Notes: generated by a model not told the origin, from the letters alone. DNA of 64,000 bases from an uncultured bacterium (GCA_964499705.1 CAZCME010000010.1:22280-86279); one strand, 5' to 3'; positions 41,054-55,921 are shown, counted from the first letter of the stretch. Program-made: numbers and translations.

Positions 41054-41278
41054 TCAGCAGTCACCTACGGGAAAAGGCAGCGGATTTACTCCTTCGTTGC
41101 AGGTATTGGCCGCATCGCAGCCGATACACGCCGGTGTCCAGGACGTGGCAACCAGATCACAGACAAGCGAATTGCAGTCGACCTGGCAGAGCGAGCTGGA
41201 ATTGGAAGGCGATTGACCGTGATGGCCGATCGTGATTCTTTCGTAGCACGTCAGTGCCGGCTTCTTATAGAGCTTCAT
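41054..41278 (-). CDS. Candidate RiPP precursor peptide (74 aa, 8 Cys)
   Basis: MKLYKKPALTCYERITIGHHGQSPSNSSSLCQVDCNSLVCDLVATSWTPACIGCDAANTCNEGVNPLPFPVGDC. It sits immediately downstream of two radical-SAM/SPASM genes in the same orientation, overlapping the second by 14 nt. Its GC content is noticeably lower than that of its neighbours. Confidence 0.5.
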   Translation of the reverse strand: MKLYKKPALTCYERITIGHHGQSPSNSSSLCQVDCNSLVCDLVATSWTPACIGCDAANTCNEGVNPLPFPVGDC

Positions 41279-42311
41279 AGGGTCCCGGTTTGGATCCGTA
41301 AAGTGCCATGGTCACCAGGCATCGCTCCAGGGGAGGTTCATGGAACATTCCCGTGGCAGCGTGGCTGTGGCCGAGGCAGGTATGACAACGTGTGACATAT
41401 TGGCATCCGGAGCAACGACTGAAGCGGTCGTACTCGACGTCGTGGGGGATTGGATGCGAACCCTCCTCACGGGCATGGAGGGATTGCCACGTCTCGATCA
41501 GTCCTTCGCGGCGGACATGACCAATGGGTTTCCTGATGGTTACGCAGGTGAGTATCTCCCCGCGCGCCGTGACGGCGAGCGTGTTCATTCCCTGGGCGCA
41601 GATTTTAATCCCGCCCGTCCCGTTCTGGCTCGAGGGCAGTGTGGCCCCGGGCCATCGGGCTTCGACGAGGCGGATCTGTTCCGGTGTGAGAAAATCCCCG
41701 TCCAGATTCCGGCCGAGATCAGAGTTCATGAGGAAGTAATCCCTCTTCACGGAGCAATCCAGTTCCCCGGCGAGTGCTCGCATCGCTTCGAGTTCATGAA
41801 CGTTCCAGCGGAACAGTGTCACGGAAAGGGAGACCGGGATTTTTTTCGCGCGGACGGCTTTGATGCCCTCGATTGTCTTTTCGAAGGATCCGGCGATTCG
41901 CGTGCAACGCTCGTGCGTCGCGGCTGTCGCTCCGTAAAGAGAGACATCCATGTGCCCGACGCCCGCGTCGGCGAGCTGGAGCGCGAGCCTCTGGAGCAGG
42001 ATACCGTTGCTTTTCAGGGAGACGCACATCCGGAGGCGGCGGGCATGCCGGATGAGCGGCAGGAGACCCGGGAAGGTTGTCGCTTCGCCTCCCGTGAAAC
42101 AGACGGCGAATGTCTTGATCGCCGCGAGTTCATCCAGCACCCGGTGCCAATGCTCCTCCGTCATATCGTCCGCCGCATAATACGCCGGGCTTTCCCGCAC
42201 GCAGTGGACGCAGCCGTGATTGCATCGGTTCGTCAGTTCCAGGATGGCGACGGAGGGAGCGGGAAACTGGATGAATTTGCGGTTGAGCACCATGGGGTCG
42301 GCGCGATTCAT
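41265..42311 (-). CDS. Radical SAM / SPASM-domain peptide-modifying enzyme (paralog B)
   Basis: CNHGCVHC (the CxxxCxxC radical-SAM cluster motif). C-terminal SPASM cysteines CSGCQYVTRCHTCLGH. 348 aa. ATGA overlap with the upstream paralog. Confidence 0.85.
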   Translation of the reverse strand: MNRADPMVLNRKFIQFPAPSVAILELTNRCNHGCVHCVRESPAYYAADDMTEEHWHRVLDELAAIKTFAVCFTGGEATTFPGLLPLIRHARRLRMCVSLKSNGILLQRLALQLADAGVGHMDVSLYGATAATHERCTRIAGSFEKTIEGIKAVRAKKIPVSLSVTLFRWNVHELEAMRALAGELDCSVKRDYFLMNSDLGRNLDGDFLTPEQIRLVEARWPGATLPSSQNGTGGIKICAQGMNTLAVTARGEILTCVTIRKPIGHVRREGLIETWQSLHAREEGSHPIPHDVEYDRFSRCSGCQYVTRCHTCLGHSHAATGMFHEPPLERCLVTMALYGSKPGPYEAL

Positions 42312-43321
42312 GCCGTTGGAAATCCGTGGAGAGACATCATTGCATAGCAGCGTTCGAGCGGCGGCTCGTAAAATTCTCCGGTGGCTGCCTGGTTATGCCC
42401 CGGACAGACATGGCACTTCGGAAGGAAGTCGCACTTCAGGCAACGGGAAAACCGATCATAGTCCAGATTGTGCGGCCGGCCATTCTCCGTCGATCTTCTC
42501 CAGACGGCCGCCACGCCTTCGCCGCGAACATGACCCATGGGTTCGCGGATCGTGATGCAGGAAAGGATCTCTCCGCGCGCGGTGATCGCCATGCGATTGA
42601 TCCCCTGCGTGCAGAACCTCACTTTCGTGGATCCGTTCTGGTGCGAGGGAATTGTCATCATTGGCCACGATTGTTCGATGGCGCGGATCTGGGACGGGGT
42701 GCAGATATCCCCGGGCGTTCTTCCCAGGTCGGTGGTCGTCATGATGTATTCGCGATTGACGGAGCAGCCTGTCTCGGCGGCGAATTGCCGGATGGCATGC
42801 AACTCGTCGGCATTCCAACGGAAGAGCGAGATGTTGATCATGACGGCGATGCCCTCGGCTCGCGCGGCGCGGATGCCGGCCGTCGTGCGGGCGAACGATC
42901 CCGGCACGAGCGTGCATCGTTCGTGAGTCGCGGCCGTGGATCCGTACAGCGAGACGTCGATCAGGCCGACGCCATCCGCTTTCAGCGGCGAGGCCAGCCG
43001 GGACAAGTTCAGGCCGTTTGTCTTCAGTGCCACTCTCATATTCAGCTTTCTGGCGTAACGGATCAGGAGGAGCAGGTCGGGATGGAGCGTGGCTTCGCCG
43101 CCGGTGAAGCAGACCGTGAAGGTGTTGATGTCGGCGAGCTCATCGAGGACGCGAAGCCACTCCTCCGTCGTCAGTTCGTCGGTATGATGGAGACTGGGAC
43201 TTTCCCGGACACAGTGCGTGCAATCGAGATTGCACCGGTTGGTGAGCTCCAGCATGGCAGCCGTGGGAGTAGGTTTTCGCTGAAAAACCTGATTAACTTC
43301 CCCTGACGTGAGCTTGATCAC
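42308..43321 (-). CDS. Radical SAM / SPASM-domain peptide-modifying enzyme (paralog A)
   Basis: CNLDCTHC (the CxxxCxxC motif). SPASM tail CLKCDFLPKCHVCPGH. About 55% identical to paralog B along the full length. Confidence 0.85.
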   Translation of the reverse strand: MIKLTSGEVNQVFQRKPTPTAAMLELTNRCNLDCTHCVRESPSLHHTDELTTEEWLRVLDELADINTFTVCFTGGEATLHPDLLLLIRYARKLNMRVALKTNGLNLSRLASPLKADGVGLIDVSLYGSTAATHERCTLVPGSFARTTAGIRAARAEGIAVMINISLFRWNADELHAIRQFAAETGCSVNREYIMTTTDLGRTPGDICTPSQIRAIEQSWPMMTIPSHQNGSTKVRFCTQGINRMAITARGEILSCITIREPMGHVRGEGVAAVWRRSTENGRPHNLDYDRFSRCLKCDFLPKCHVCPGHNQAATGEFYEPPLERCYAMMSLHGFPTA

Positions 43322-43418
43322 GATCCCGATGGATTATTATATTCCCCTTTAAACTGGCGTGCGAGGGTTATGTAAGTAATTTACCAATCTTCAACGTACT
43401 AGGGGCTTTTACACAGGC

Positions 43419-44237
43419 ATGATAATCTGTCTTATCCTCATGTTTCCACTCCAGCTTGGAAAAACTGAATTTGAGATTTTTCTACCCGATGTCGTCATTT
43501 CCTCCATGTTGCCGGCCTACCTCCACTCCCTGCCCTGTGAAGAACTACCCCTCGTCGGTTCGCAAATACGAATGCACGCCATGGATGAAGCACCCGCGAC
43601 GGCGCTCGACGTGCCGGATCAATTCGGATTCTACCGGGCCAGATATCTCCGTTCCGGGAATTCCTGGGATTTTTTCACAAGCGTCCCACAGGGGCCGACC
43701 AAGCCGGATATTCTTCCGACCAGGTCCGTGACGCCCGCCGTGCTGACCGTTCTGGCTCACCAGGGAGTCCTCGCGATTCATGGTTCCGCTGTAATCCGTC
43801 ATGACAAGGCTCTGCTCTTCGTGGGGCCCAGCGGGAGCGGAAAATCCACGATGGCGGATCAGCTCTCAAGTTTCGGGTGTGAGTTTTTTTCCGAGGATAG
43901 AGTGCTTGTCTGGCGAACATCGGAAGGCATCATGGCGACTCCGTCGTTCGAAGCCGGTAATCCGTTCGGCCGGTGGGTCGGTTGTGTGCCCGAAACCGGA
44001 CGGCGGCCTCCGAAGCGGAGAACGCCTCCTTATGGCCGCGTGGCGCCTGCGGGGAAAGTTTATTTTCCGGAAGTGAGGCCCGGCGAGGAATCCTCCCGAT
44101 TCGCCCTTCCACGCCAGGAAGCATTCGTGCGATTGGCCGCGTCCACGATCGGCACATGGGATGCTCTGCCGGAAGGGATGGAAACGGAAGGGCTGATACT
44201 GGGGACAAATGCGGTGAAGCTGGCGGCTGAGCTTTAA
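43419..44237 (+). CDS. HPr kinase/phosphorylase C-terminal-domain-like P-loop protein (HprK-related kinase)
   Basis: GVLAIHGSAVIRHDKALLFVGPSGSGKSTMADQL matches the HprK C-terminal P-loop pattern (GxSGxGKS plus the preceding HG motif). It is divergent from the rSAM operon. Confidence 0.65.
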   Translation: MIICLILMFPLQLGKTEFEIFLPDVVISSMLPAYLHSLPCEELPLVGSQIRMHAMDEAPATALDVPDQFGFYRARYLRSGNSWDFFTSVPQGPTKPDILPTRSVTPAVLTVLAHQGVLAIHGSAVIRHDKALLFVGPSGSGKSTMADQLSSFGCEFFSEDRVLVWRTSEGIMATPSFEAGNPFGRWVGCVPETGRRPPKRRTPPYGRVAPAGKVYFPEVRPGEESSRFALPRQEAFVRLAASTIGTWDALPEGMETEGLILGTNAVKLAAEL

Positions 44238-47079: not shown

Positions 47080-48309
47080 ATGCTCGACGGAAGATTTATG
47101 GCAAAGGGTCTGGCTCTTGCGGTATGCCTGTCCCTGCTGCCGACGCAGGCGGATGCGAAGCTCTTCAAGGACAAGGCAACGGGCATGATCTACGCGACCG
47201 CCGGAGAGAACAGGGAGGAATACAAGCCCTGGGGACTGGATATCGGATTCCAGTTCTTCGTGCAGTACCGAACCGAGCTGGAAGACCGGAATCAACCCGC
47301 CGGCACCGCCTATGCCGCGAAGAACACGACGACGAGTCCTTATGATGTCTTCGAAGCGACGAGGACGATCATGGATATCAAGAAGAGCTTCACGAATACA
47401 TCCCGTGCGCGGTTTGTCCTCGATTCCCGCAACACGGCGGTCGGTAATTACGATCTCTTTGTCCGCCACGTCTACGGCGAGCAGGATTTCCCCTCGATCA
47501 ACTCGACCTTTCTTTTCGGCGAGATACCGATGCCGGTCATTCCTCATTCCGACGGACTCTGGGGATACCGCGTGCAGGGAACGATCTTTTCGGAACGAGA
47601 ACAATACTTCACATCGGGCGACTGGGGCATCGGGTGGAGGACGAAGTTCTCGTTTCTTCCGCTGGATTGGTACACCACGTTCACGAACGGCGAGGGCCGG
47701 ACAACCGCGGAAGTCAACAGCGGCAAGGCCATCGAATCGCGCCTGACCTGGAAGGTGGAGCAGGTCGAAGGGCTGTCGATTTCCGCGGGAGGATCGTATC
47801 TCTCCGGCGGCAACATTGTCGGCACGGCCAACACGGGCGTGGGAGTTCGCCAGGTCCGCGCCGTCGGCGACGTCTTCTACGTCCGCCCGAAATGGCGGAT
47901 CGGCGGTACGTATCTCTGGACGAGCGACGAGGCGAACTCATGGGCCAATTCCGTCAGCATCATCGGAAATTCCACGGCCAACATGAACCGCCAGTCGATC
48001 CCTCTCACCGGATATTCCATCACGAAAATTCAGGGCCAGGGCTTCTCCCTGATGGGAGTTGTCGATCTGAGTTCCCGATGGTCCGTAATCGGCCGGTGGG
48101 ATACGTTCGATCCGGCGGAAAACGTGCCGGATAATTCGCATGACCGATTCATGGTCGGGCCGGTGTATCGCGTGAACGACAACATCAAGGTTCTGGCGAA
48201 CTACGAGAGCCTGGATTTCAATCCCGGCGCGGAAATCGCCTCCGGCAATATCACCGGAAACGCCTACGACCAGTCACGCCTTCTTGTGCAGACGGAGATC
48301 AAGTTCTAG
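47080..48309 (+). CDS. Outer-membrane beta-barrel protein (porin-like)
   Basis: RBS AGGAGG before the ATG. Signal peptide LALAVCLSLLPTQADA. Alternating amphipathic strands. C-terminal ...VQTEIKF (terminal Phe). Confidence 0.55.
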   Translation: MLDGRFMAKGLALAVCLSLLPTQADAKLFKDKATGMIYATAGENREEYKPWGLDIGFQFFVQYRTELEDRNQPAGTAYAAKNTTTSPYDVFEATRTIMDIKKSFTNTSRARFVLDSRNTAVGNYDLFVRHVYGEQDFPSINSTFLFGEIPMPVIPHSDGLWGYRVQGTIFSEREQYFTSGDWGIGWRTKFSFLPLDWYTTFTNGEGRTTAEVNSGKAIESRLTWKVEQVEGLSISAGGSYLSGGNIVGTANTGVGVRQVRAVGDVFYVRPKWRIGGTYLWTSDEANSWANSVSIIGNSTANMNRQSIPLTGYSITKIQGQGFSLMGVVDLSSRWSVIGRWDTFDPAENVPDNSHDRFMVGPVYRVNDNIKVLANYESLDFNPGAEIASGNITGNAYDQSRLLVQTEIKF

Positions 48310-50006
48310 GAGAACGTTCCCTGCCTTAACTCTTTGGGCACGAATTCCAGGTCGCTCGCTTCCTTGATCGCCAGTTCGATCTGGAAAGCCATCACCTTCG
48401 GATCGACCGGCGGCTGGTAATCCTGGAGGCAGGCCGCCAGCGCTTCGATGGGCTTCAACTTTTTGACTTTCACGAGGCGGTAGATCTTCACGGATAATGC
48501 CTCGGCCGCTCCGGGGGTGAGGCGATCGGGGATCGCAGCTTCCATTTCGCCAAGCAATGTCTCGTCGATCTCCACGCCACGACGTTTGCAGAGCGCGCGG
48601 ATCAGGTTGTAGCCTTCCTTAGGAGTTGTCGTCGGGAAGATCGGTATCTTCACATCGACGCGGCCGGGCCGCTTCAGATCGACTTCAACGAGATCGGGCC
48701 GGGATGTCGCGAGGACCCATATGATCTTCCCGCGATTTTCCGAATCGCTCATCTCCTGCGCCAGCATCGAATAGACGCGGCCGGACAATCCCGAGTCATT
48801 CGACCCGGAATCGCGCTTGCCCATCGTCTGATCGGCTTCGTCGATGAAGACATAGCATCGGCCGAGCGCCCGCAGCAGCCGGAAGATCTTCTCGAGATTC
48901 GACTCCGTGCTGCCGACCCACTTGTCGCGGAAATTCTTGAGCTTCACGACCGGCACGGCCGCCTCCCCGGCGATGCACTCGACCATGAAGGTCTTGCCGG
49001 TGCCGACCGGTCCGCAGATCAGGTAGCCCTTCGGCAGGGCGTCGATGTCGTTCTTGCGCCACAATTCGATATCCTGCCGGATCCAGGTCTTGATCTTCTC
49101 CTGACCGTACAACGCGTCGAGATTCTTCTTCGGCTCGATGAATTCTATGAGGCCGTTGCAGTCGTTCTCGATCAGTTCCTTCTTCAGTTTCGAGAGATCC
49201 GCCTCCGCCAGCGCGATGTTCGCGTGCTCCTTCGTCTTCAGAAGGCTCTCGATCGAGGCGAGCGTTGCTCCGCGCAAGGCTTCCGCGGGCGCCGTGTGAT
49301 CGTCCTTGAACGGCGCGAGCGCGGTCGGATATCGCGGTGCCATGATGCGGAATGCGGATGCGAGATCCGCCGATTCCGGAAGGGGGACCTTGATGCGGGA
49401 TGCGCGTGGATGATTGACGAGCAGGGGATGGAGGTCGTTCAGGTTTTCGGCGACGAGAAACGTCACGAGGGCATGTTCCGTCAGGAGCGTCTCGCTCGAC
49501 CAGTCGCGCATGAGAAACGCGAGCGCGTTCAGGTCGTAGTTCAGGCCCTGCGGCAGGGCGGGCGCCAGGAGGTGCGCGTCGCGGATGATGCATCCGACAT
49601 GCGGCGCGGGCTTGCCCAGCCGCGCGAGATTCGCGGTGTAACGGAAATAATGCGTCAGCGTTTCGATCGCGGGGCGCGGAGCGCGAGGCAGGTCCTGCCC
49701 CTTGAAGGCGGGCCACTGCGTGAAGGTTTCTCCGCCCTTGTCGATCCGTATTCCGTTGCCGAGATCGAAGTTCAGGACGACGTCGAACGAAGGCATCAGG
49801 ATGCGGATCAGGAAATCATGCAGGCTTCCCAGCTCCGGTTGCTTCAGCGGCAGGATCAACCGGTCGTGGACGTTTCCGTGCAGGATGAACTGGTTCCGGG
49901 AACCGCTCTCGTACTGACCGATCAGTTCCAGAGCCCAGGCGGGAAGCGACGTTTCTTTATCGGATCCCGGACTCGCGAGATCCTTGTCCGCAGATTTCGG
50001 TTCCAC
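48306..50006 (-). CDS. AAA+ ATPase (classic AAA clade, single C-terminal AAA domain with a roughly 300-aa N-terminal domain)
   Basis: Walker A ICGPVGTGKTF. Walker B VFIDEAD. Sensor/arginine-finger region ATSRPDLVEVDLKRPGRVD. Sits 32 nt downstream of the PspA-family gene on the same strand. Confidence 0.8.
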   Translation of the reverse strand: MEPKSADKDLASPGSDKETSLPAWALELIGQYESGSRNQFILHGNVHDRLILPLKQPELGSLHDFLIRILMPSFDVVLNFDLGNGIRIDKGGETFTQWPAFKGQDLPRAPRPAIETLTHYFRYTANLARLGKPAPHVGCIIRDAHLLAPALPQGLNYDLNALAFLMRDWSSETLLTEHALVTFLVAENLNDLHPLLVNHPRASRIKVPLPESADLASAFRIMAPRYPTALAPFKDDHTAPAEALRGATLASIESLLKTKEHANIALAEADLSKLKKELIENDCNGLIEFIEPKKNLDALYGQEKIKTWIRQDIELWRKNDIDALPKGYLICGPVGTGKTFMVECIAGEAAVPVVKLKNFRDKWVGSTESNLEKIFRLLRALGRCYVFIDEADQTMGKRDSGSNDSGLSGRVYSMLAQEMSDSENRGKIIWVLATSRPDLVEVDLKRPGRVDVKIPIFPTTTPKEGYNLIRALCKRRGVEIDETLLGEMEAAIPDRLTPGAAEALSVKIYRLVKVKKLKPIEALAACLQDYQPPVDPKVMAFQIELAIKEASDLEFVPKELRQGTFS

Positions 50007-50038
50007 CTATGATGTCCTTGCCGCGCCGGTATTCCTCT

Positions 50039-50779
50039 TCAGGCTGCCGTCGTCTCCGGTCCCATCGTCTTGGTCGTCGCGGCTCCGGATCCGACTCCTT
50101 CGAGCGCGATGCCTTCGTGCGCGGCGAAGTCGGCGAGCGCCTGTTCCGCGAGCGCATTCTGCTCGCCTTCCTTCAGGACCACATCGGTCATCTCCAGGGA
50201 GTCTCTTGCGACGCGAGCGCGTCCCGCCGCTTTCGTTCGATCTTCCTCAACCATCGTATGAAGCCGATCCAGTGTGTCGCCGGAACCGCCGATGGTCGTG
50301 ATCATGCCGGAAGCCATCTCCGTCAATTCCGCCATCGCCTTCTTCATCTTCAGATCGTCAATGGAGGACTTCAGCGCTTCCATCTTCGCCCTCGCCGCGT
50401 TGACGGCGACATCGCGGGCGCGGACGAGGTTCTTGTAGGTTTCTTCAGACGACGCGAGCTGTGTTCTATTTTCTTCCAGCTCACGAGCGACGGTCTGCAG
50501 GCGCAGCGCATACTGTCCGGCGGCCTGCCGGTTGCCGGCCTTCAGGTTGGCCGATGCCTTGGCGCGAAGATCGCGCTCCTCGGTTTCGAGCCTTTTCACC
50601 TGCGTCATCAGGCGCTCGCAAAGTCCGGCGTGTGAGGCCAGGCCCATGTTGTATTTGCCGATCTGCTCCCGAAGATTTTCCTTCTCCACTTCGAGAAGCG
50701 CTTCCGGATTCTGTCGCTCCATGCCGCTGATGAAGAGCCCGAGAAAACCCCGGACCAGGTTCGATAAGCGTCTGAACAT
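50039..50779 (-). CDS. pspA: PspA/IM30/Vipp1 family protein (bacterial ESCRT-III-like)
   Basis: MFRRLSNLVRGFLGLFISGMERQNPEALLEVEKENLREQ matches the conserved PspA N-terminus. The rest is long coiled-coil. 246 aa. Confidence 0.8.
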   Translation of the reverse strand: MFRRLSNLVRGFLGLFISGMERQNPEALLEVEKENLREQIGKYNMGLASHAGLCERLMTQVKRLETEERDLRAKASANLKAGNRQAAGQYALRLQTVARELEENRTQLASSEETYKNLVRARDVAVNAARAKMEALKSSIDDLKMKKAMAELTEMASGMITTIGGSGDTLDRLHTMVEEDRTKAAGRARVARDSLEMTDVVLKEGEQNALAEQALADFAAHEGIALEGVGSGAATTKTMGPETTAA

Positions 50780-51045
50780 CTATGCCCTGACCTCCTGTGT
50801 GATCCTGCCGCGATCATAGGGAGAGATAATACCGGCGTCTACAGCGGATTGGCCCGCATAGAAGTTCCCCATCCGAAGGCGGGAAATTTAACAGGATGGG
50901 CAGGATTTGAGAGGGATGAAAACCACTCCCCGATAACAGGACTACATTACCTTCATTTCCACTGAAAATCGATCCTGCCTATCCTGCCTATCCTGCTCAT
51001 CCTGTTAATATTGTTTGGAACTTCTGTGGCCCGCGGATGGGCCCG

Positions 51046-52202: not shown

Positions 52203-53291
52203 TCAGTCTTCGACCTCGGTCCGGAGCGCCGCGAATCCGGGCTTGATGATATTGTAGATGAGCTTCAATCGCTTCTTGTACGGAAAGAACGCCGACTTCA
52301 TCGCGTTCAACATCAGCTTCTCCACATCGTCGAAGGTGAGATTCCACTGGTTGACGATCGTCATGATCTCCTTCGTCATCGTCGTGTCCGACATCAGGCG
52401 GTTGTCCGTGTTGACCGTCACGCGGAACCGATACCGCCAGAAGATCCCGAAGGGATGCTCGGCGATGGAGTTCGCGGCGCCGGTCTGGATGTTCGACAGC
52501 AGGCAGATTTCCAGGGGGATGCGCTTGTCGAGAACATACTGGGCGAGCGTGCCCATGCTGTGGACTTTGCCCTCGTCGTCGATCGTCATGTCCTCGATGA
52601 GGTGCGTCGCGTGGCCGATCCGGTGCGCTCCGCACCACTGGATCGCCTGCCAGATCGATTTCATGCCGAAGGCCTCGCCCGCGTGGATCGTGATATTGAA
52701 GTTCTCGCGCTGGATGTGATGGAAGGCGTCGACGTGTTTCTTCGGAGGGTGGCCGGCTTCCTCGCCGGCGAGGTCGAAGCCGATGACGCCGCGGTTGCGG
52801 TAGGCGACCGCGAGCTCGGCCATCTCCATGGCGATCTCCGGATCCATGTTCCGCATCGCGCAGATGAGGATCCCCCAGGCGACGCCGGTCTCCTTTTCGG
52901 CGCGCGCGCAACCGGACAGGACGGCGTTCATGACGGCTTCGAGCGAAAGCCCCTTCTGAGTGTGGTAGCCGGGATGGAATCGCAGTTCGATGTACGCGAT
53001 GTTGTCGGCGGCGGCATCGACGATGGCTTCGTAGGCGATTCGTTCGAGCGCTTCCTTCGATTGCATCACGGCGATCGTCGTTCCGAAACCTTCGAGGTAG
53101 AGCGGGAGGCTCTTGCGATTGCAGCCGCGATGAAACCAGGCGGCGAGCTTCGCGGGATCGGACTCCGGGAGATCGACCTTTTCCTTCTCGGCGATTTCAC
53201 AGATGGTTTGCGGGCGGAGGCATCCGTCCAGGTGTTCATGCAGGAGAACTTTCGGCATCCGCCGGACGATCTCCTCGGTAAGCGGGATCAT
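52203..53291 (-). CDS. add: Adenosine deaminase
   Basis: PKVLLHEHLDGCLRP (the HxHxDG metal site). HAGEAFG. SLNTDD-like VNTDNRLMSDTT. Internal start (minus strand, read as cat at 53289-53291). The upstream 376 aa of the listed ORF are junk. Confidence 0.8.
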   Translation of the reverse strand: MIPLTEEIVRRMPKVLLHEHLDGCLRPQTICEIAEKEKVDLPESDPAKLAAWFHRGCNRKSLPLYLEGFGTTIAVMQSKEALERIAYEAIVDAAADNIAYIELRFHPGYHTQKGLSLEAVMNAVLSGCARAEKETGVAWGILICAMRNMDPEIAMEMAELAVAYRNRGVIGFDLAGEEAGHPPKKHVDAFHHIQRENFNITIHAGEAFGMKSIWQAIQWCGAHRIGHATHLIEDMTIDDEGKVHSMGTLAQYVLDKRIPLEICLLSNIQTGAANSIAEHPFGIFWRYRFRVTVNTDNRLMSDTTMTKEIMTIVNQWNLTFDDVEKLMLNAMKSAFFPYKKRLKLIYNIIKPGFAALRTEVED

Positions 53292-53429
53292 GCACGGATA
53301 TTTGCATGGGTTGAGTTGTGCGTCAAGACACACACGCGTTGGAAGAACGAAAGATTTTGGAACCGGTTCGCGCATGCACGGTCTATAATCGCTGGAATGC
53401 ACAATCTGTTCGCACCGAGGGAGGCTCCC

Positions 53430-54578
53430 ATGAAGAAATTGTCCGGATCCCTGATCATCGCGCTCGCCTTGATGGCCGCGGTCTTCACATCGTCCGCGCC
53501 CGCGCGCATCAAGCTTGTCACTCTGCCGGATCGGGCGAACATCTCCCTCTCCATCGAGCATCCGACGGCGAATCTCATCCAGGAAGAACGCGTGCTGTCG
53601 CTGCAAAAGGGTGTGAACCAGGTCGATTTCAACTGGCAGGGCGTGCAGATCGATGCGTCGGCGGTGCTGCTGGAACCGTTGGAACATCCCCAGGAAGTGA
53701 CGTTGATTTCCGTTCAGTATCCGCCCGGAGAAAACGCGCTCGTGTGGGAAGTCTATTCGCCGCGGGCTATGGCGGAGCGGGTACGCGTGACCTATTTTCT
53801 CGACGGGATCGGGCGCGAAGTGACCTACAGGGCGGTCGCCGACAAGGACGAGGAGAAACTCTCCTTCAAGCAGTACATCCGCCTTCGGAATGATTCCGGA
53901 GAGAAGCTCGACGGCGTGAAGATCCTCTCGGGATTCGCTCCGGAATATGCGACCGATCTCGATAACGGGGAGATGCGCCAGACTCTGGCAGGATCGAACA
54001 CGATCCCGCTGAAGAGGACCTTCACATGGGACTCCCTGGAAAAGCCTCACGATCCGTCGAAGGAACAGATGAACGTCGGCGTGCCGATTCACTACGTGAT
54101 CGCGAATACCGCGGAAGCTGGGCTCGGCCGCGCGGCGCTGAAATATGGAAAGGTGCGCGTCTTCCAGGATGACGGCCGGGGCGGGACGGCGTTTCTCGGG
54201 GAGGACTGGGGCGAGTACGCTCCGGTATCGAAGGATATGAAGGTGGGAGTCGGCGAGTCGAGGGATATCGTCGTGACGCGGAAGCAGCTGGAGCTGGAGC
54301 GGACGCGCGAGCGTCGCAATGCGCGGAACGAAGTGGTGATCTACGACACGAAGGAGAGCTATGAGGTTGTCGTCGAGAACCGCCGGAACAAGGATGCCGT
54401 CATCACCGTCGTCGATCACTTCGATGAAACATGGGATGTCGCGTCCGCGTCGCAGAAGTGGGAGCGCAAGGATTACCGGACGCTGAAGTTCGAAGTGCCC
54501 GTTCCGGCATCGGACTCCGTGACGGTGAATTTCGTCATCGCGCGCAGCAACCTGCGTCCTTCGGGAGCGCTTCGATGA
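53430..54578 (+). CDS. DUF4139/DUF4140-like secreted protein (MuiA-like), paralog 1
   Basis: RBS GAGGGAGG before ATG 53430. Signal peptide. Shares conserved blocks with the next two genes (VxFxWxG..IDxxS, YxxxGLxWxADYEGLVD, VKxxNxSGE.xDxxxIxLVxGxIHLVENIA). Confidence 0.6.
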   Translation: MKKLSGSLIIALALMAAVFTSSAPARIKLVTLPDRANISLSIEHPTANLIQEERVLSLQKGVNQVDFNWQGVQIDASAVLLEPLEHPQEVTLISVQYPPGENALVWEVYSPRAMAERVRVTYFLDGIGREVTYRAVADKDEEKLSFKQYIRLRNDSGEKLDGVKILSGFAPEYATDLDNGEMRQTLAGSNTIPLKRTFTWDSLEKPHDPSKEQMNVGVPIHYVIANTAEAGLGRAALKYGKVRVFQDDGRGGTAFLGEDWGEYAPVSKDMKVGVGESRDIVVTRKQLELERTRERRNARNEVVIYDTKESYEVVVENRRNKDAVITVVDHFDETWDVASASQKWERKDYRTLKFEVPVPASDSVTVNFVIARSNLRPSGALR

Positions 54579-55921
54579 CGGGGAAATACCAAATACCGAA
54601 TATCAAATATCAGATATCAAAAGTGGTGATTGCGGCGGGCGTCATTTTTCTCGCTTCGCTTGCTGCGGATGCCCGCGTCGGGCTCGTCACCGTGCCGCGC
54701 CGGGACGCGGTCCAGGTCACGATCTACAATTCCGCCGACTTGACTCTTGTTCGGGAGCAGCGGCTGTTGACGCTAGCCAAGGGCAGGAACAAGCTGGAAT
54801 TTTCCTGGGCAGGGACGCTCATCGATCCGACCTCGATCCAGTTCGAGGCCAAAACGCACGCGGACAAGGTGGAAGTGATCGATGTTTCGTTTCCGGCACA
54901 GGCTCCGAATGCGCTCGTCTGGAACGTGGAATCGGAGCAGGAAGGCGAGGTCCTGGTGGAGATTTCCTACTTCACATCGGGTCTCACCTGGTCCGCCGAC
55001 TATGAAGGGCTTGTGGACGCGGCCGGGAAAAGGATGAAGATCGCCTCGTTCGTGAAAGTGACGAACAGGTCCGGAGAAGAATACGACGGCGCGCAGGTAA
55101 GGCTTGTCGTCGGGAAGATTCACCTCGTGGAGAATATCGCGGAACTGGCGAACCGGGCGGGACGGCCGGTGCCGGCTCCCGTGCAGTCGCGAGCACGCGC
55201 AATGATGAGGAGACCATCGGCGGCCGCGCCTGCGCCGGCGATGGGAATGCTGATGGCGGAGTCGGCCGGGCCGCCGGAGATCATCCGCGAAGGCCTCTCG
55301 GAGTATTTTCTCTACACGGTCGCGGGAGTTCATGCCGTTCCCGACCAGTGGTCGGTCCGTTGGCCGAACTTCGCGAAAGACAATGTGGAGATCGAGAATT
55401 TCTATCGGTATGAACAGGGCCGGTATAACCAGCCCCAGCGGTTTGTGCGCCTCCGGAACGACAAGCCGCACAACCTCGGCGAGGAACCGCTGCCCGACGG
55501 CGAGGTCTTGATCTACCAGTCGCGTGAAAACAACACCCGATACTTTTTCGGTCGATCGCTCTCCAAATACATTCCGATCGGCGAGACCTGGGAGATCGAC
55601 CTGGGAGCGGATCCGGAAGTCGTCGTGAAGCCGACCCTGGCAAGATGGGCCGTCACGGATGTGGAATTCCACGATAACAGCGAGCCATCGGGCTGGGATG
55701 TGAAAGAGGACTGGACCATCGAGATCCTCAACTCCCGCAACCAGCCGATCTCCATCGAAGCCGACCAGAACTTCAGCGGCGACTTTGCTTTTGCAAGCGA
55801 AGCGAGTCATGAGAAATACGATCTCGACTCGATCCGCTTCAAGAGAACGCTCCAGCCGCAATCGAGCGAAGTGCTCTCCTACTCCATCACCACCCGCAAG
55901 GGCACCCGTGCTCGGAGGTAA
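54575..55921 (+). CDS. DUF4139/DUF4140-like secreted protein, paralog 2
   Basis: ATG overlaps the upstream stop (ATGA). Signal peptide VVIAAGVIFLASLAADA. VTIYNSADLTLVREQRLLTL, ...EFSWAGTLIDPTSIQFEA, and C-terminal ...TTRKGTRARR shared with paralog 3. Confidence 0.6.
   Translation: MTGKYQIPNIKYQISKVVIAAGVIFLASLAADARVGLVTVPRRDAVQVTIYNSADLTLVREQRLLTLAKGRNKLEFSWAGTLIDPTSIQFEAKTHADKVEVIDVSFPAQAPNALVWNVESEQEGEVLVEISYFTSGLTWSADYEGLVDAAGKRMKIASFVKVTNRSGEEYDGAQVRLVVGKIHLVENIAELANRAGRPVPAPVQSRARAMMRRPSAAAPAPAMGMLMAESAGPPEIIREGLSEYFLYTVAGVHAVPDQWSVRWPNFAKDNVEIENFYRYEQGRYNQPQRFVRLRNDKPHNLGEEPLPDGEVLIYQSRENNTRYFFGRSLSKYIPIGETWEIDLGADPEVVVKPTLARWAVTDVEFHDNSEPSGWDVKEDWTIEILNSRNQPISIEADQNFSGDFAFASEASHEKYDLDSIRFKRTLQPQSSEVLSYSITTRKGTRARR

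Follow-up and report, generated by a model that had tools for sequence, protein, structure and literature searches.

Organisation of the locus

The gene pair that is described here lies in a 64,000-nucleotide stretch of DNA from an uncultured bacterium (GCA_964499705.1 CAZCME010000010.1:22280-86279; the whole stretch is referred to as the window) and consists of pspA, which encodes a PspA/IM30 protein belonging to the ESCRT-III superfamily, together with a gene for an ATPase with two AAA modules. Based on open reading frame (ORF) calling across the window, both genes are on the minus strand, with pspA (246 aa, ATG start) first and the AAA gene (566 aa, GTG start) downstream of it. An earlier note on this DNA, which was made from the sequence alone, had reported two genes on the same strand that were 32 nucleotides (nt) apart and had taken them for a PspA/IM30 gene and a gene for a classic-clade AAA protein; the ORF calls and the Pfam matches (PF04012, E = 4e-12; PF00004, E = 6e-25) agree with it on each of these points. 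A terminator-like hairpin lies in the spacer that separates the upstream gene for a TrkA-type channel from pspA, and the 3′ end of the AAA gene shares 4 nt with a convergent outer-membrane-like ORF. Because of this hairpin upstream and this overlap downstream, the transcription unit comprises pspA and the AAA gene, and the locus is a two-gene operon. This gene pair was called on three independent groundwater metagenome contigs.

Architecture of the ATPase

The PF00004 match covers residues 329-455, which belong to the second AAA module (D2). This module has a Walker A motif, a Walker B motif that contains the literal DEAD that had been pointed out in the earlier note, a KWVG pore loop and RPGR arginine fingers, all of which were invariant in 32 homologues, and its core is 78% identical across the ATPase family. 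Judged by its motifs, which include the two-arginine second region of homology, D2 is predicted to be an active AAA module of the classic clade. The helical lid and C-terminal region that follow the D2 core had no AAA_lid_3 or Vps4_C Pfam match at E ≤ 1 and no sequence match in the PDB.

The region that precedes D2 had been singled out in the earlier note for a structure prediction that might reveal a MIT-like fold. Such a domain was rejected, as residues 20-285 were modelled as an alpha/beta AAA module instead (D1). An AlphaFold2 (AF2) model of residues 1-290 alone reached a pLDDT (predicted local distance difference test) of 86 and a pTM (predicted template modelling score) of 0.83, and when it was compared with the PDB using Foldseek, all of the matches were AAA modules with a probability of 1.0 over 257-327 columns, among them the Vps4 ATPase domain 4d82, Rpt subunits, Cdc48/p97, Pex1/6 and Afg2. 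At the sequence level, the D1 module had no match in the PDB. It has FILHGNVHDR at the Walker A position, with no GK[ST], no Walker A lysine and no hhhhDE, and is 60% identical across the ATPase family. Because the AAA fold was recovered by both AF2 and Foldseek and the nucleotide-binding motifs are missing, we consider D1 to be a degenerate, catalytically dead AAA module and not a MIT domain. The model of the full-length ATPase (pLDDT 77) aligned over 562-628 columns with the tandem type-II AAA proteins Afg2/Drg1, p97, Rix7, Cdc48 and SPATA5 in Foldseek.

PspA and its C-terminal motif

The PF04012 match of the first protein reached 46.7 bits, where the gathering cut-off is 33.9, and is essentially full-length, with residues 2-220 on positions 3-216 of the 220 in the profile. 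BLASTP similarity to the PspA of E. coli was not significant, and a profile of the subfamily found no match among the PDB sequences, whilst over 100 homologues in the database share 73-79% identity with the protein. By sequence comparison, the PspA of the window thus represents a divergent subfamily that is internally very conserved. Its alignment showed a conserved N-terminal amphipathic segment and a conserved late helix, ALADFAAKEGI (ALADFAAHEGIALE), which precedes a variable linker of Pro, Ala, Gly and Thr.

The C-terminal tail of the subfamily carries a short motif, K-x-M-G-P, in which G240 and P241 never vary and K237 and M239 are kept in at least 90% of the sequences. Among the PspA proteins that are linked to an AAA gene, 48 of 73 have the strict [KR]x[ML]GP pattern and most of the others have looser variants of K/R-x-M-small residue. 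These include the distant member at locus L084, whose PspA still has QKTMGP at its C-terminus. The motif was absent when the PspA of E. coli was checked for it. K-x-M-G-P is a candidate ATPase-docking peptide of this subfamily.

Conservation of the gene pair

When one genome per GTDB species was scanned, at least 545 relatives of the ATPase emerged, of which the best 80 loci were analysed. Their ATPases are 53-68% identical to that of the window and come from Abditibacteriota, Armatimonadota, Acidobacteriota, Verrucomicrobiota, Planctomycetota, Desulfobacterota and Firmicutes, the last with one metagenome-assembled genome (MAG) of Oscillospiraceae (L074). To count the linkage, the six-frame ORFs of the loci were searched with the PspA of the window, and the 75 loci that had enough upstream sequence were treated as informative. 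The same PspA subfamily was found upstream of the AAA gene and on the same strand in 70 of these (93%; E values from 1e-76 to 1e-116), and the conservation of the pair across genomes, which the earlier note had wanted to see examined, was thus confirmed in at least seven phyla. The gap between the two genes is shorter than 300 nt in 34 loci, with the genes abutting or overlapping in approximately 14 of them, and 300-1300 nt in another 33. This adjacency is far beyond chance. Moreover, the identity between phyla is unusually high, at 73-79% for PspA and 62-69% for the AAA protein.

Other neighbouring genes are not conserved, and the conserved unit is therefore the pair itself. None of the 80 related loci has a homologue of the outer-membrane-like ORF that converges on the AAA gene, and the gene for the TrkA-type channel beside pspA was not found in the other related loci. 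In 16 acidobacterial loci, mostly from Thermoanaerobaculia (e.g., L035:7664-8296), the gene directly downstream of that for the ATPase encodes a conserved Cys-rich protein of approximately 210 aa, which is confined to this lineage and has no counterpart in the window.

A frequent addition is a protein of approximately 265 aa that has two transmembrane helices at its N-terminus and a long coiled coil and was found in 38 of the 80 loci (e.g., L008:5243-6040, L013:5156-5977 and L017:5129-5962). In most cases, its gene is placed between pspA and the AAA gene and fills the longer gaps. The 64-kb window held no convincing homologue of it, the best match (E = 0.0018) being an ORF without a Pfam family. 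This protein is probably the ‘TM+Snf7’ protein that was described by Ravi et al. A relationship of the coiled-coil protein to Snf7 or PspA was unsupported in our comparisons (hhalign probability against PspA of 0.3%, no Pfam or PDB match).

The N-domain family of the ATPase comprises 579 cluster representatives at 50% identity, and the linkage to PspA persists at an N-domain identity of 31-42% (L084, L085 and L088). The gene orders in these distant members differ and include VWA-PspA-x-AAA (L088) and PspA-AAA-YopX (L085-087). At L084:1898-6620 (a 47-kb Logan contig from SRR25158211; 33% N-domain identity), the two genes close a TerD-TerC-TerD-PspA-AAA array that has an RNA ligase, an HNH gene and numerous small ORFs without annotation on its flanks, surroundings of a phage-like or mobile character. 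In L088:1-5695 and L089:842-5716, proteins with VWA and OmpA domains precede the distant ATPase members, and in L089 an unannotated protein of 226 aa directly upstream of the ATPase takes the place of a recognisable PspA.

It could be argued that the adjacency is functionally meaningless or that the pair is a mobile or anti-phage defence element, an explanation to which weak PADLOC matches to IetA (50 bits, confined to the AAA core), a match of the D2 core in PHROGs and the phage-like TerD/TerC surroundings of one distant relative would lend themselves. We consider this to be very unlikely. The similarity in PADLOC and PHROG extends only to the generic AAA/D2 core, no close homologue was found among 50,697 phage records, and the linkage holds in genomes across phyla. 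Additionally, the operon is flanked by housekeeping genes in the window (uvrC, an argC-like semialdehyde dehydrogenase gene and a K+ channel gene), where the GC content is uniform.

Features and neighbouring genes

The coordinates of the features are collected in Table 1. The promoter candidate upstream of pspA is a weak match to the consensus, and its function is putative on sequence grounds.

Table 1. Features of the pspA-AAA operon and of the two encoded proteins, with positions counted from the first nucleotide of the window.
Feature	Position	Strand	Basis or remark
Promoter candidate, sigma-70-like, TAGACG-17-TATGAT, upstream of pspA	50813..50841	-	consensus scan, 9/12 matches
Ribosome-binding site AGGAGG	50791..50796	-	11 nt 5′ of the pspA ATG; sequence read and verified
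PspA/IM30 (ESCRT-III superfamily), 246 aa	50039..50779	-	Pfam PF04012
C-terminal K-T-M-G-P of PspA, residues 237-241	50057..50071	-	subfamily alignment; after the late helix and a short variable Gly/Ala/Thr linker
Intergenic spacer, 32 nt	50007..50038	-	AAGGA 9 nt 5′ of the GTG of the AAA gene
Tandem AAA protein, 566 aa: disordered N-terminus (1-18), degenerate D1-like module, D2 (predicted active), helical lid	48306..50006	-	Pfam, AF2 and Foldseek
D1-like degenerate AAA module, residues ~20-285	49152..49949	-	AF2 and Foldseek
D2 AAA core (predicted active), residues 290-460	48627..49139	-	coordinates verified by translation
D2 Walker A GPVGTGKT, residues 332-339	48990-49013	-	
D2 pore loop KWVG, residues 362-365	48912-48923	-	
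D2 Walker B VFIDEAD, residues 386-392	48831-48851	-	DEAD at 389-392
D2 arginine fingers RPGR, residues 446-449	48660-48671	-	in the context KRPGRVD
D2 helical lid and C-terminal region, residues 461-566	48309..48626	-	AF2 secondary structure

The outer-membrane-like ORF that converges on the AAA gene (47080-48309, plus strand) encodes 409 aa and has a weak match to an outer-membrane beta-barrel. Farther from the operon on this side, at 41054-44237, two radical-SAM genes (one with a weak SPASM match), an ORF of 74 aa and a divergent ScmC-like gene (weak match) were seen using Pfam on the identical contig L001; this region looks like a small peptide-maturation cluster. On the other side, two long adjoining ORFs of 707 and 496 aa occupy 52455-55921 on the plus strand. 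The shorter of them matched DUF4139 below the threshold (30.5 bits against a cut-off of 31.8), and the longer overlaps a minus-strand ORF of 738 aa, which makes the gene calls in this region uncertain.

Relationship of the ATPase to known AAA families

The placement of the ATPase was based on a comparison of model scores and PDB rankings. Among the NCBIfam family models, CDC48 scored highest (76 bits), followed by FtsH (72), PAN (63), Mpa (46) and CdvC/Vps4 (39.8), none of which came near its curated cut-off (76 against 802.65 for the CDC48 model TIGR01243 and 39.8 against 650 for the CdvC model NF041006). The PDB sequence matches were led by VAT, Cdc48, Afg2 and the D2 of p97. By these two measures, the ATPase is a classic-clade, Cdc48-flavoured tandem AAA protein whose D2 is closest to that of Cdc48, p97 and Afg2. 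Membership in the Cdc48/p97/VAT family proper was rejected, since the protein scored below the model cut-off, its D1 is degenerate and only 18 disordered residues precede D1. The Cdc48/p97/VAT, Afg2/Drg1, Rix7 and Pex1/Pex6 proteins nonetheless gave the best sequence and fold matches and share the stacked D1-D2 arrangement, whereas the ATPase of the window differs from these type-II tandem proteins in that it has no double-psi-barrel N domain, has a D1 that is beyond recognition by sequence and, at 566 aa, is much shorter. A comparable division is known from Pex1/Pex6, where D1 lacks activity and D2 provides the motor.

The arginine fingers of Cdc48, FtsH and Rpt are of the RPGR type, and the meiotic clade, to which Vps4, katanin and spastin belong, has an RRR-F/L signature. 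The RRR signature was sought in the ATPase and was absent, the sequence at this place being KRPGRVD. No MIT or Vps4_C match was found in Pfam at E ≤ 1. These results bear on the view that the ATPase is truly orthologous to Vps4 or the meiotic clade and that the locus is homologous to the archaeal Cdv/ESCRT system. The order of an ESCRT-III-superfamily gene and then an AAA gene does resemble that of archaeal cdvB-cdvC, and the top Foldseek match of the N-domain was the Vps4 ATPase domain of Metallosphaera, although its E value of 2.7e-6 is indistinguishable from those of the other AAA matches. Against it stand the fingers and the missing domains, the tandem architecture and a CdvC score that is below those of CDC48, FtsH and PAN; Ravi et al. 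likewise call the tandem AAA proteins ‘distinct’ from Vps4-like ATPases (PMC11237479). Such an orthology is largely refuted and can hardly be credited. The proposal of the earlier note, a membrane-remodelling module analogous to ESCRT-III with Vps4, therefore fared differently in its two parts: the pairing is conserved and the analogy is plausible, but the ATPase is not specifically related to Vps4, spastin or katanin.

A PspF-type activator was also rejected, in line with the earlier note. The ATPase has no GAFTGA loop and no Sigma54_activat or helix-turn-helix (HTH) match in Pfam, and BLASTP against the PspF of E. coli gave E = 0.33. The PspF-PspA pair of Proteobacteria resembles the present one in that a bacterial AAA+ protein is tied genetically and functionally to PspA; PspF, however, is a sigma-54 enhancer-binding protein with GAFTGA and HTH, and its gene is transcribed divergently from pspA.

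Comparison with known systems

The idea that such a pair might correspond to Vps4 and its substrate is not new. Ravi, Anantharaman, Aravind and Gennaro (mSystems 2024, PMC11237479) described PspA together with an ‘Inactive-Classical-AAA+Classical-AAA’ dyad in ‘various bacterial clades’, with exemplars in Clostridium sp. BNL1100 (AEY64321.1/AEY64320.1) and Handelsmanbacteria (OGG56892.1), and proposed an ATP-dependent membrane remodelling that is comparable to that by Snf7 and Vps4. Both components, the dead N-terminal AAA module with the active classic AAA module after it and the optional membrane-anchored coiled-coil third protein are the same in that system and in ours, and the window locus shows the dead-then-active architecture and the PspA neighbour that recurs in diverse bacteria. 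It thus belongs to the dyad kind of Ravi et al., to which it was matched by architecture and linkage, the exemplars being compared by description. There are also two differences. The order in the Clostridium exemplar is AAA and then PspA, whereas it is PspA and then AAA in the window, and the Snf7 relationship that was assigned to the third protein there was not reproduced here.

Similar loci were reported in halobacteria by Makarova et al. in 2024 (PMC10936438), who found a PspA-like gene upstream of a gene for a Vps4-like ATPase without MIT and with a VAT-type N domain in the ‘Halo_adaptin’ loci. Compared by description, these share with the window a PspA-like gene of the ESCRT-III superfamily directly upstream of a gene for a Cdc48-flavoured, MIT-less AAA protein, but they are archaeal, their ATPase has one module together with a VAT-N substrate domain, and they include winged-helix and adaptin-like genes.

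With Vps4/CdvC and ESCRT-III, the pair shares the adjoining genes for an ESCRT-III-superfamily polymer and a classic-clade AAA motor, a flexible tail of the polymer protein with a short conserved motif, which is comparable to the MIT-interacting motif (MIM), and pore-loop threading as the likely mechanism of extraction. It differs in that the ATPase has no MIT, no beta-domain and no C-terminal helix, in its two AAA modules instead of one and in its RPGR fingers.

Proposed function

Classic-clade AAA hexamers such as Vps4, Cdc48, Pex1/6 and katanin disassemble polymers and complexes by pore-loop threading. We lean, by somewhat more than an even chance, towards a function of this kind, in which PspA subunits would be extracted and the PspA polymer disassembled in an ATP-driven manner by a dedicated ATPase that is an analogue of Vps4 and not its orthologue. 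PspA would polymerise on the stressed or damaged inner membrane via its N-terminal amphipathic helix, which is a property of the family. The flexible C-terminal tail of PspA, which ends in K-x-M-G-P, would then recruit the hexameric ATPase, for which the dead but highly conserved D1 ring would probably serve as a scaffold and as a platform for docking PspA. Finally, ATP hydrolysis in the D2 ring would thread PspA subunits out of the polymer, which would be disassembled and recycled or remodelled; this last step is suggested by the mechanism of classic-clade AAA proteins together with the intact pore loop and arginine fingers. Sound family assignments, the invariant D2 motifs, the tight linkage, the co-conservation of the two proteins and the subfamily-specific tail motif all support extraction by a dedicated motor, and it is from them that we infer that PspA and the ATPase interact physically, what the tail motif does and that the action is one of disassembly.

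Several observations weigh against this function. Five of the 75 informative genomes (L051, an Akkermansia muciniphila MAG, as well as L052, L056, L067 and L071) have no PspA within 4-6 kb upstream of the ATPase gene or elsewhere in the locus, even though their ATPase homologues are still 58-60% identical and the sister Akkermansia locus L031 has PspA. The three most divergent ATPase relatives that were examined (P0322, P0360 and P0385) had no detectable PspA neighbour either, and the ATPase can therefore exist without an adjoining PspA. Moreover, certain PspA/Vipp1 proteins reportedly bind nucleotides on their own (PMC11746142), so that an external motor is not obligatory. Lastly, PspA-PspF, the only bacterial partnership of PspA with an AAA+ protein that has been studied, runs in the opposite way, with PspA inhibiting the ATPase (PMC7619361).

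This precedent leads to a reversal of the proposed direction: PspA might inhibit the ATPase, as it does PspF, or the ATPase might serve as a chaperone of assembly or loading, holding PspA in the monomeric state and handing it over to the membrane instead of taking polymers apart. The latter would suit the wording of Ravi et al., who term the associated AAA+ proteins ‘chaperones’ that assemble sub-membrane complexes (PMC11237479). A reversal nevertheless seems improbable to us. The ATPase shows no relationship to PspF, it lacks an output domain for inhibition by PspA to control, and the fact that its pore loop and arginine fingers are intact points to a translocating motor.

Since the ATPase itself lacks transmembrane segments and any recognisable domain for substrate binding, PspA could be its membrane adaptor. 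In that case, the ATPase would unfold or extract other damaged or mislocalised clients from the membrane or envelope in a quality control similar to that of Msp1, Cdc48 or FtsH. Membrane and envelope proteins are often added in the related loci, including the coiled-coil protein with two transmembrane helices, the VWA and OmpA-domain proteins and TerC/TerD, and some members of the ATPase family have no adjoining PspA. Conversely, neither the window nor the 34 minimal two-gene loci have a conserved third partner, and the terminal motif of PspA and the extreme co-conservation of both proteins fit PspA as a direct substrate or partner at least equally well. We assign this adaptor role a modest chance of being correct.

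Significance

The pairing has been known computationally since 2024, and the value of the present analysis lies in its confirmation, its quantification and sharper predictions, not in a discovery. New here are the 93% linkage across phyla, the structure-predicted dead AAA N-domain and the K-x-M-G-P candidate docking peptide, as well as the distinction between two-gene and three-gene variants and the surroundings of distant members, with TerD/TerC and VWA/OmpA. No experimental study of a PspA-tandem-AAA pair was found in the literature, and the association of PspA with AAA is not mentioned by Popp et al. (2022), nor was the bacterial dyad taken up by Makarova et al. Liu et al. (2021) left the remodelling of bacterial ESCRT-III relatives (PspA/Vipp1) by an external ATPase as an open question. 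The pspA-AAA operon family, which is a compact, widespread and tightly linked two-gene system, makes this question directly testable in vitro, with a Walker B trap mutant, a PspA that is deprived of its tail motif and the dead D1 ring as experimental handles.

It is conceivable, with a likelihood that falls just short of even, that many non-model phyla, such as Acidobacteriota, Verrucomicrobiota, Planctomycetota, Abditibacteriota and others, own an ATP-driven machine of the ESCRT-III type in which a Cdc48-like tandem AAA protein dismantles a PspA polymer via the MIM-like K-x-M-G-P. If this is true, such a bacterial machine would contradict the statement in a 2025 review that a Vps4-like ATPase ‘appears absent in bacteria’ (PMC7619361). 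The pairing of an ESCRT-III protein with a Cdc48-derived motor would then have arisen at least twice, or it would predate the split between bacteria and archaea.

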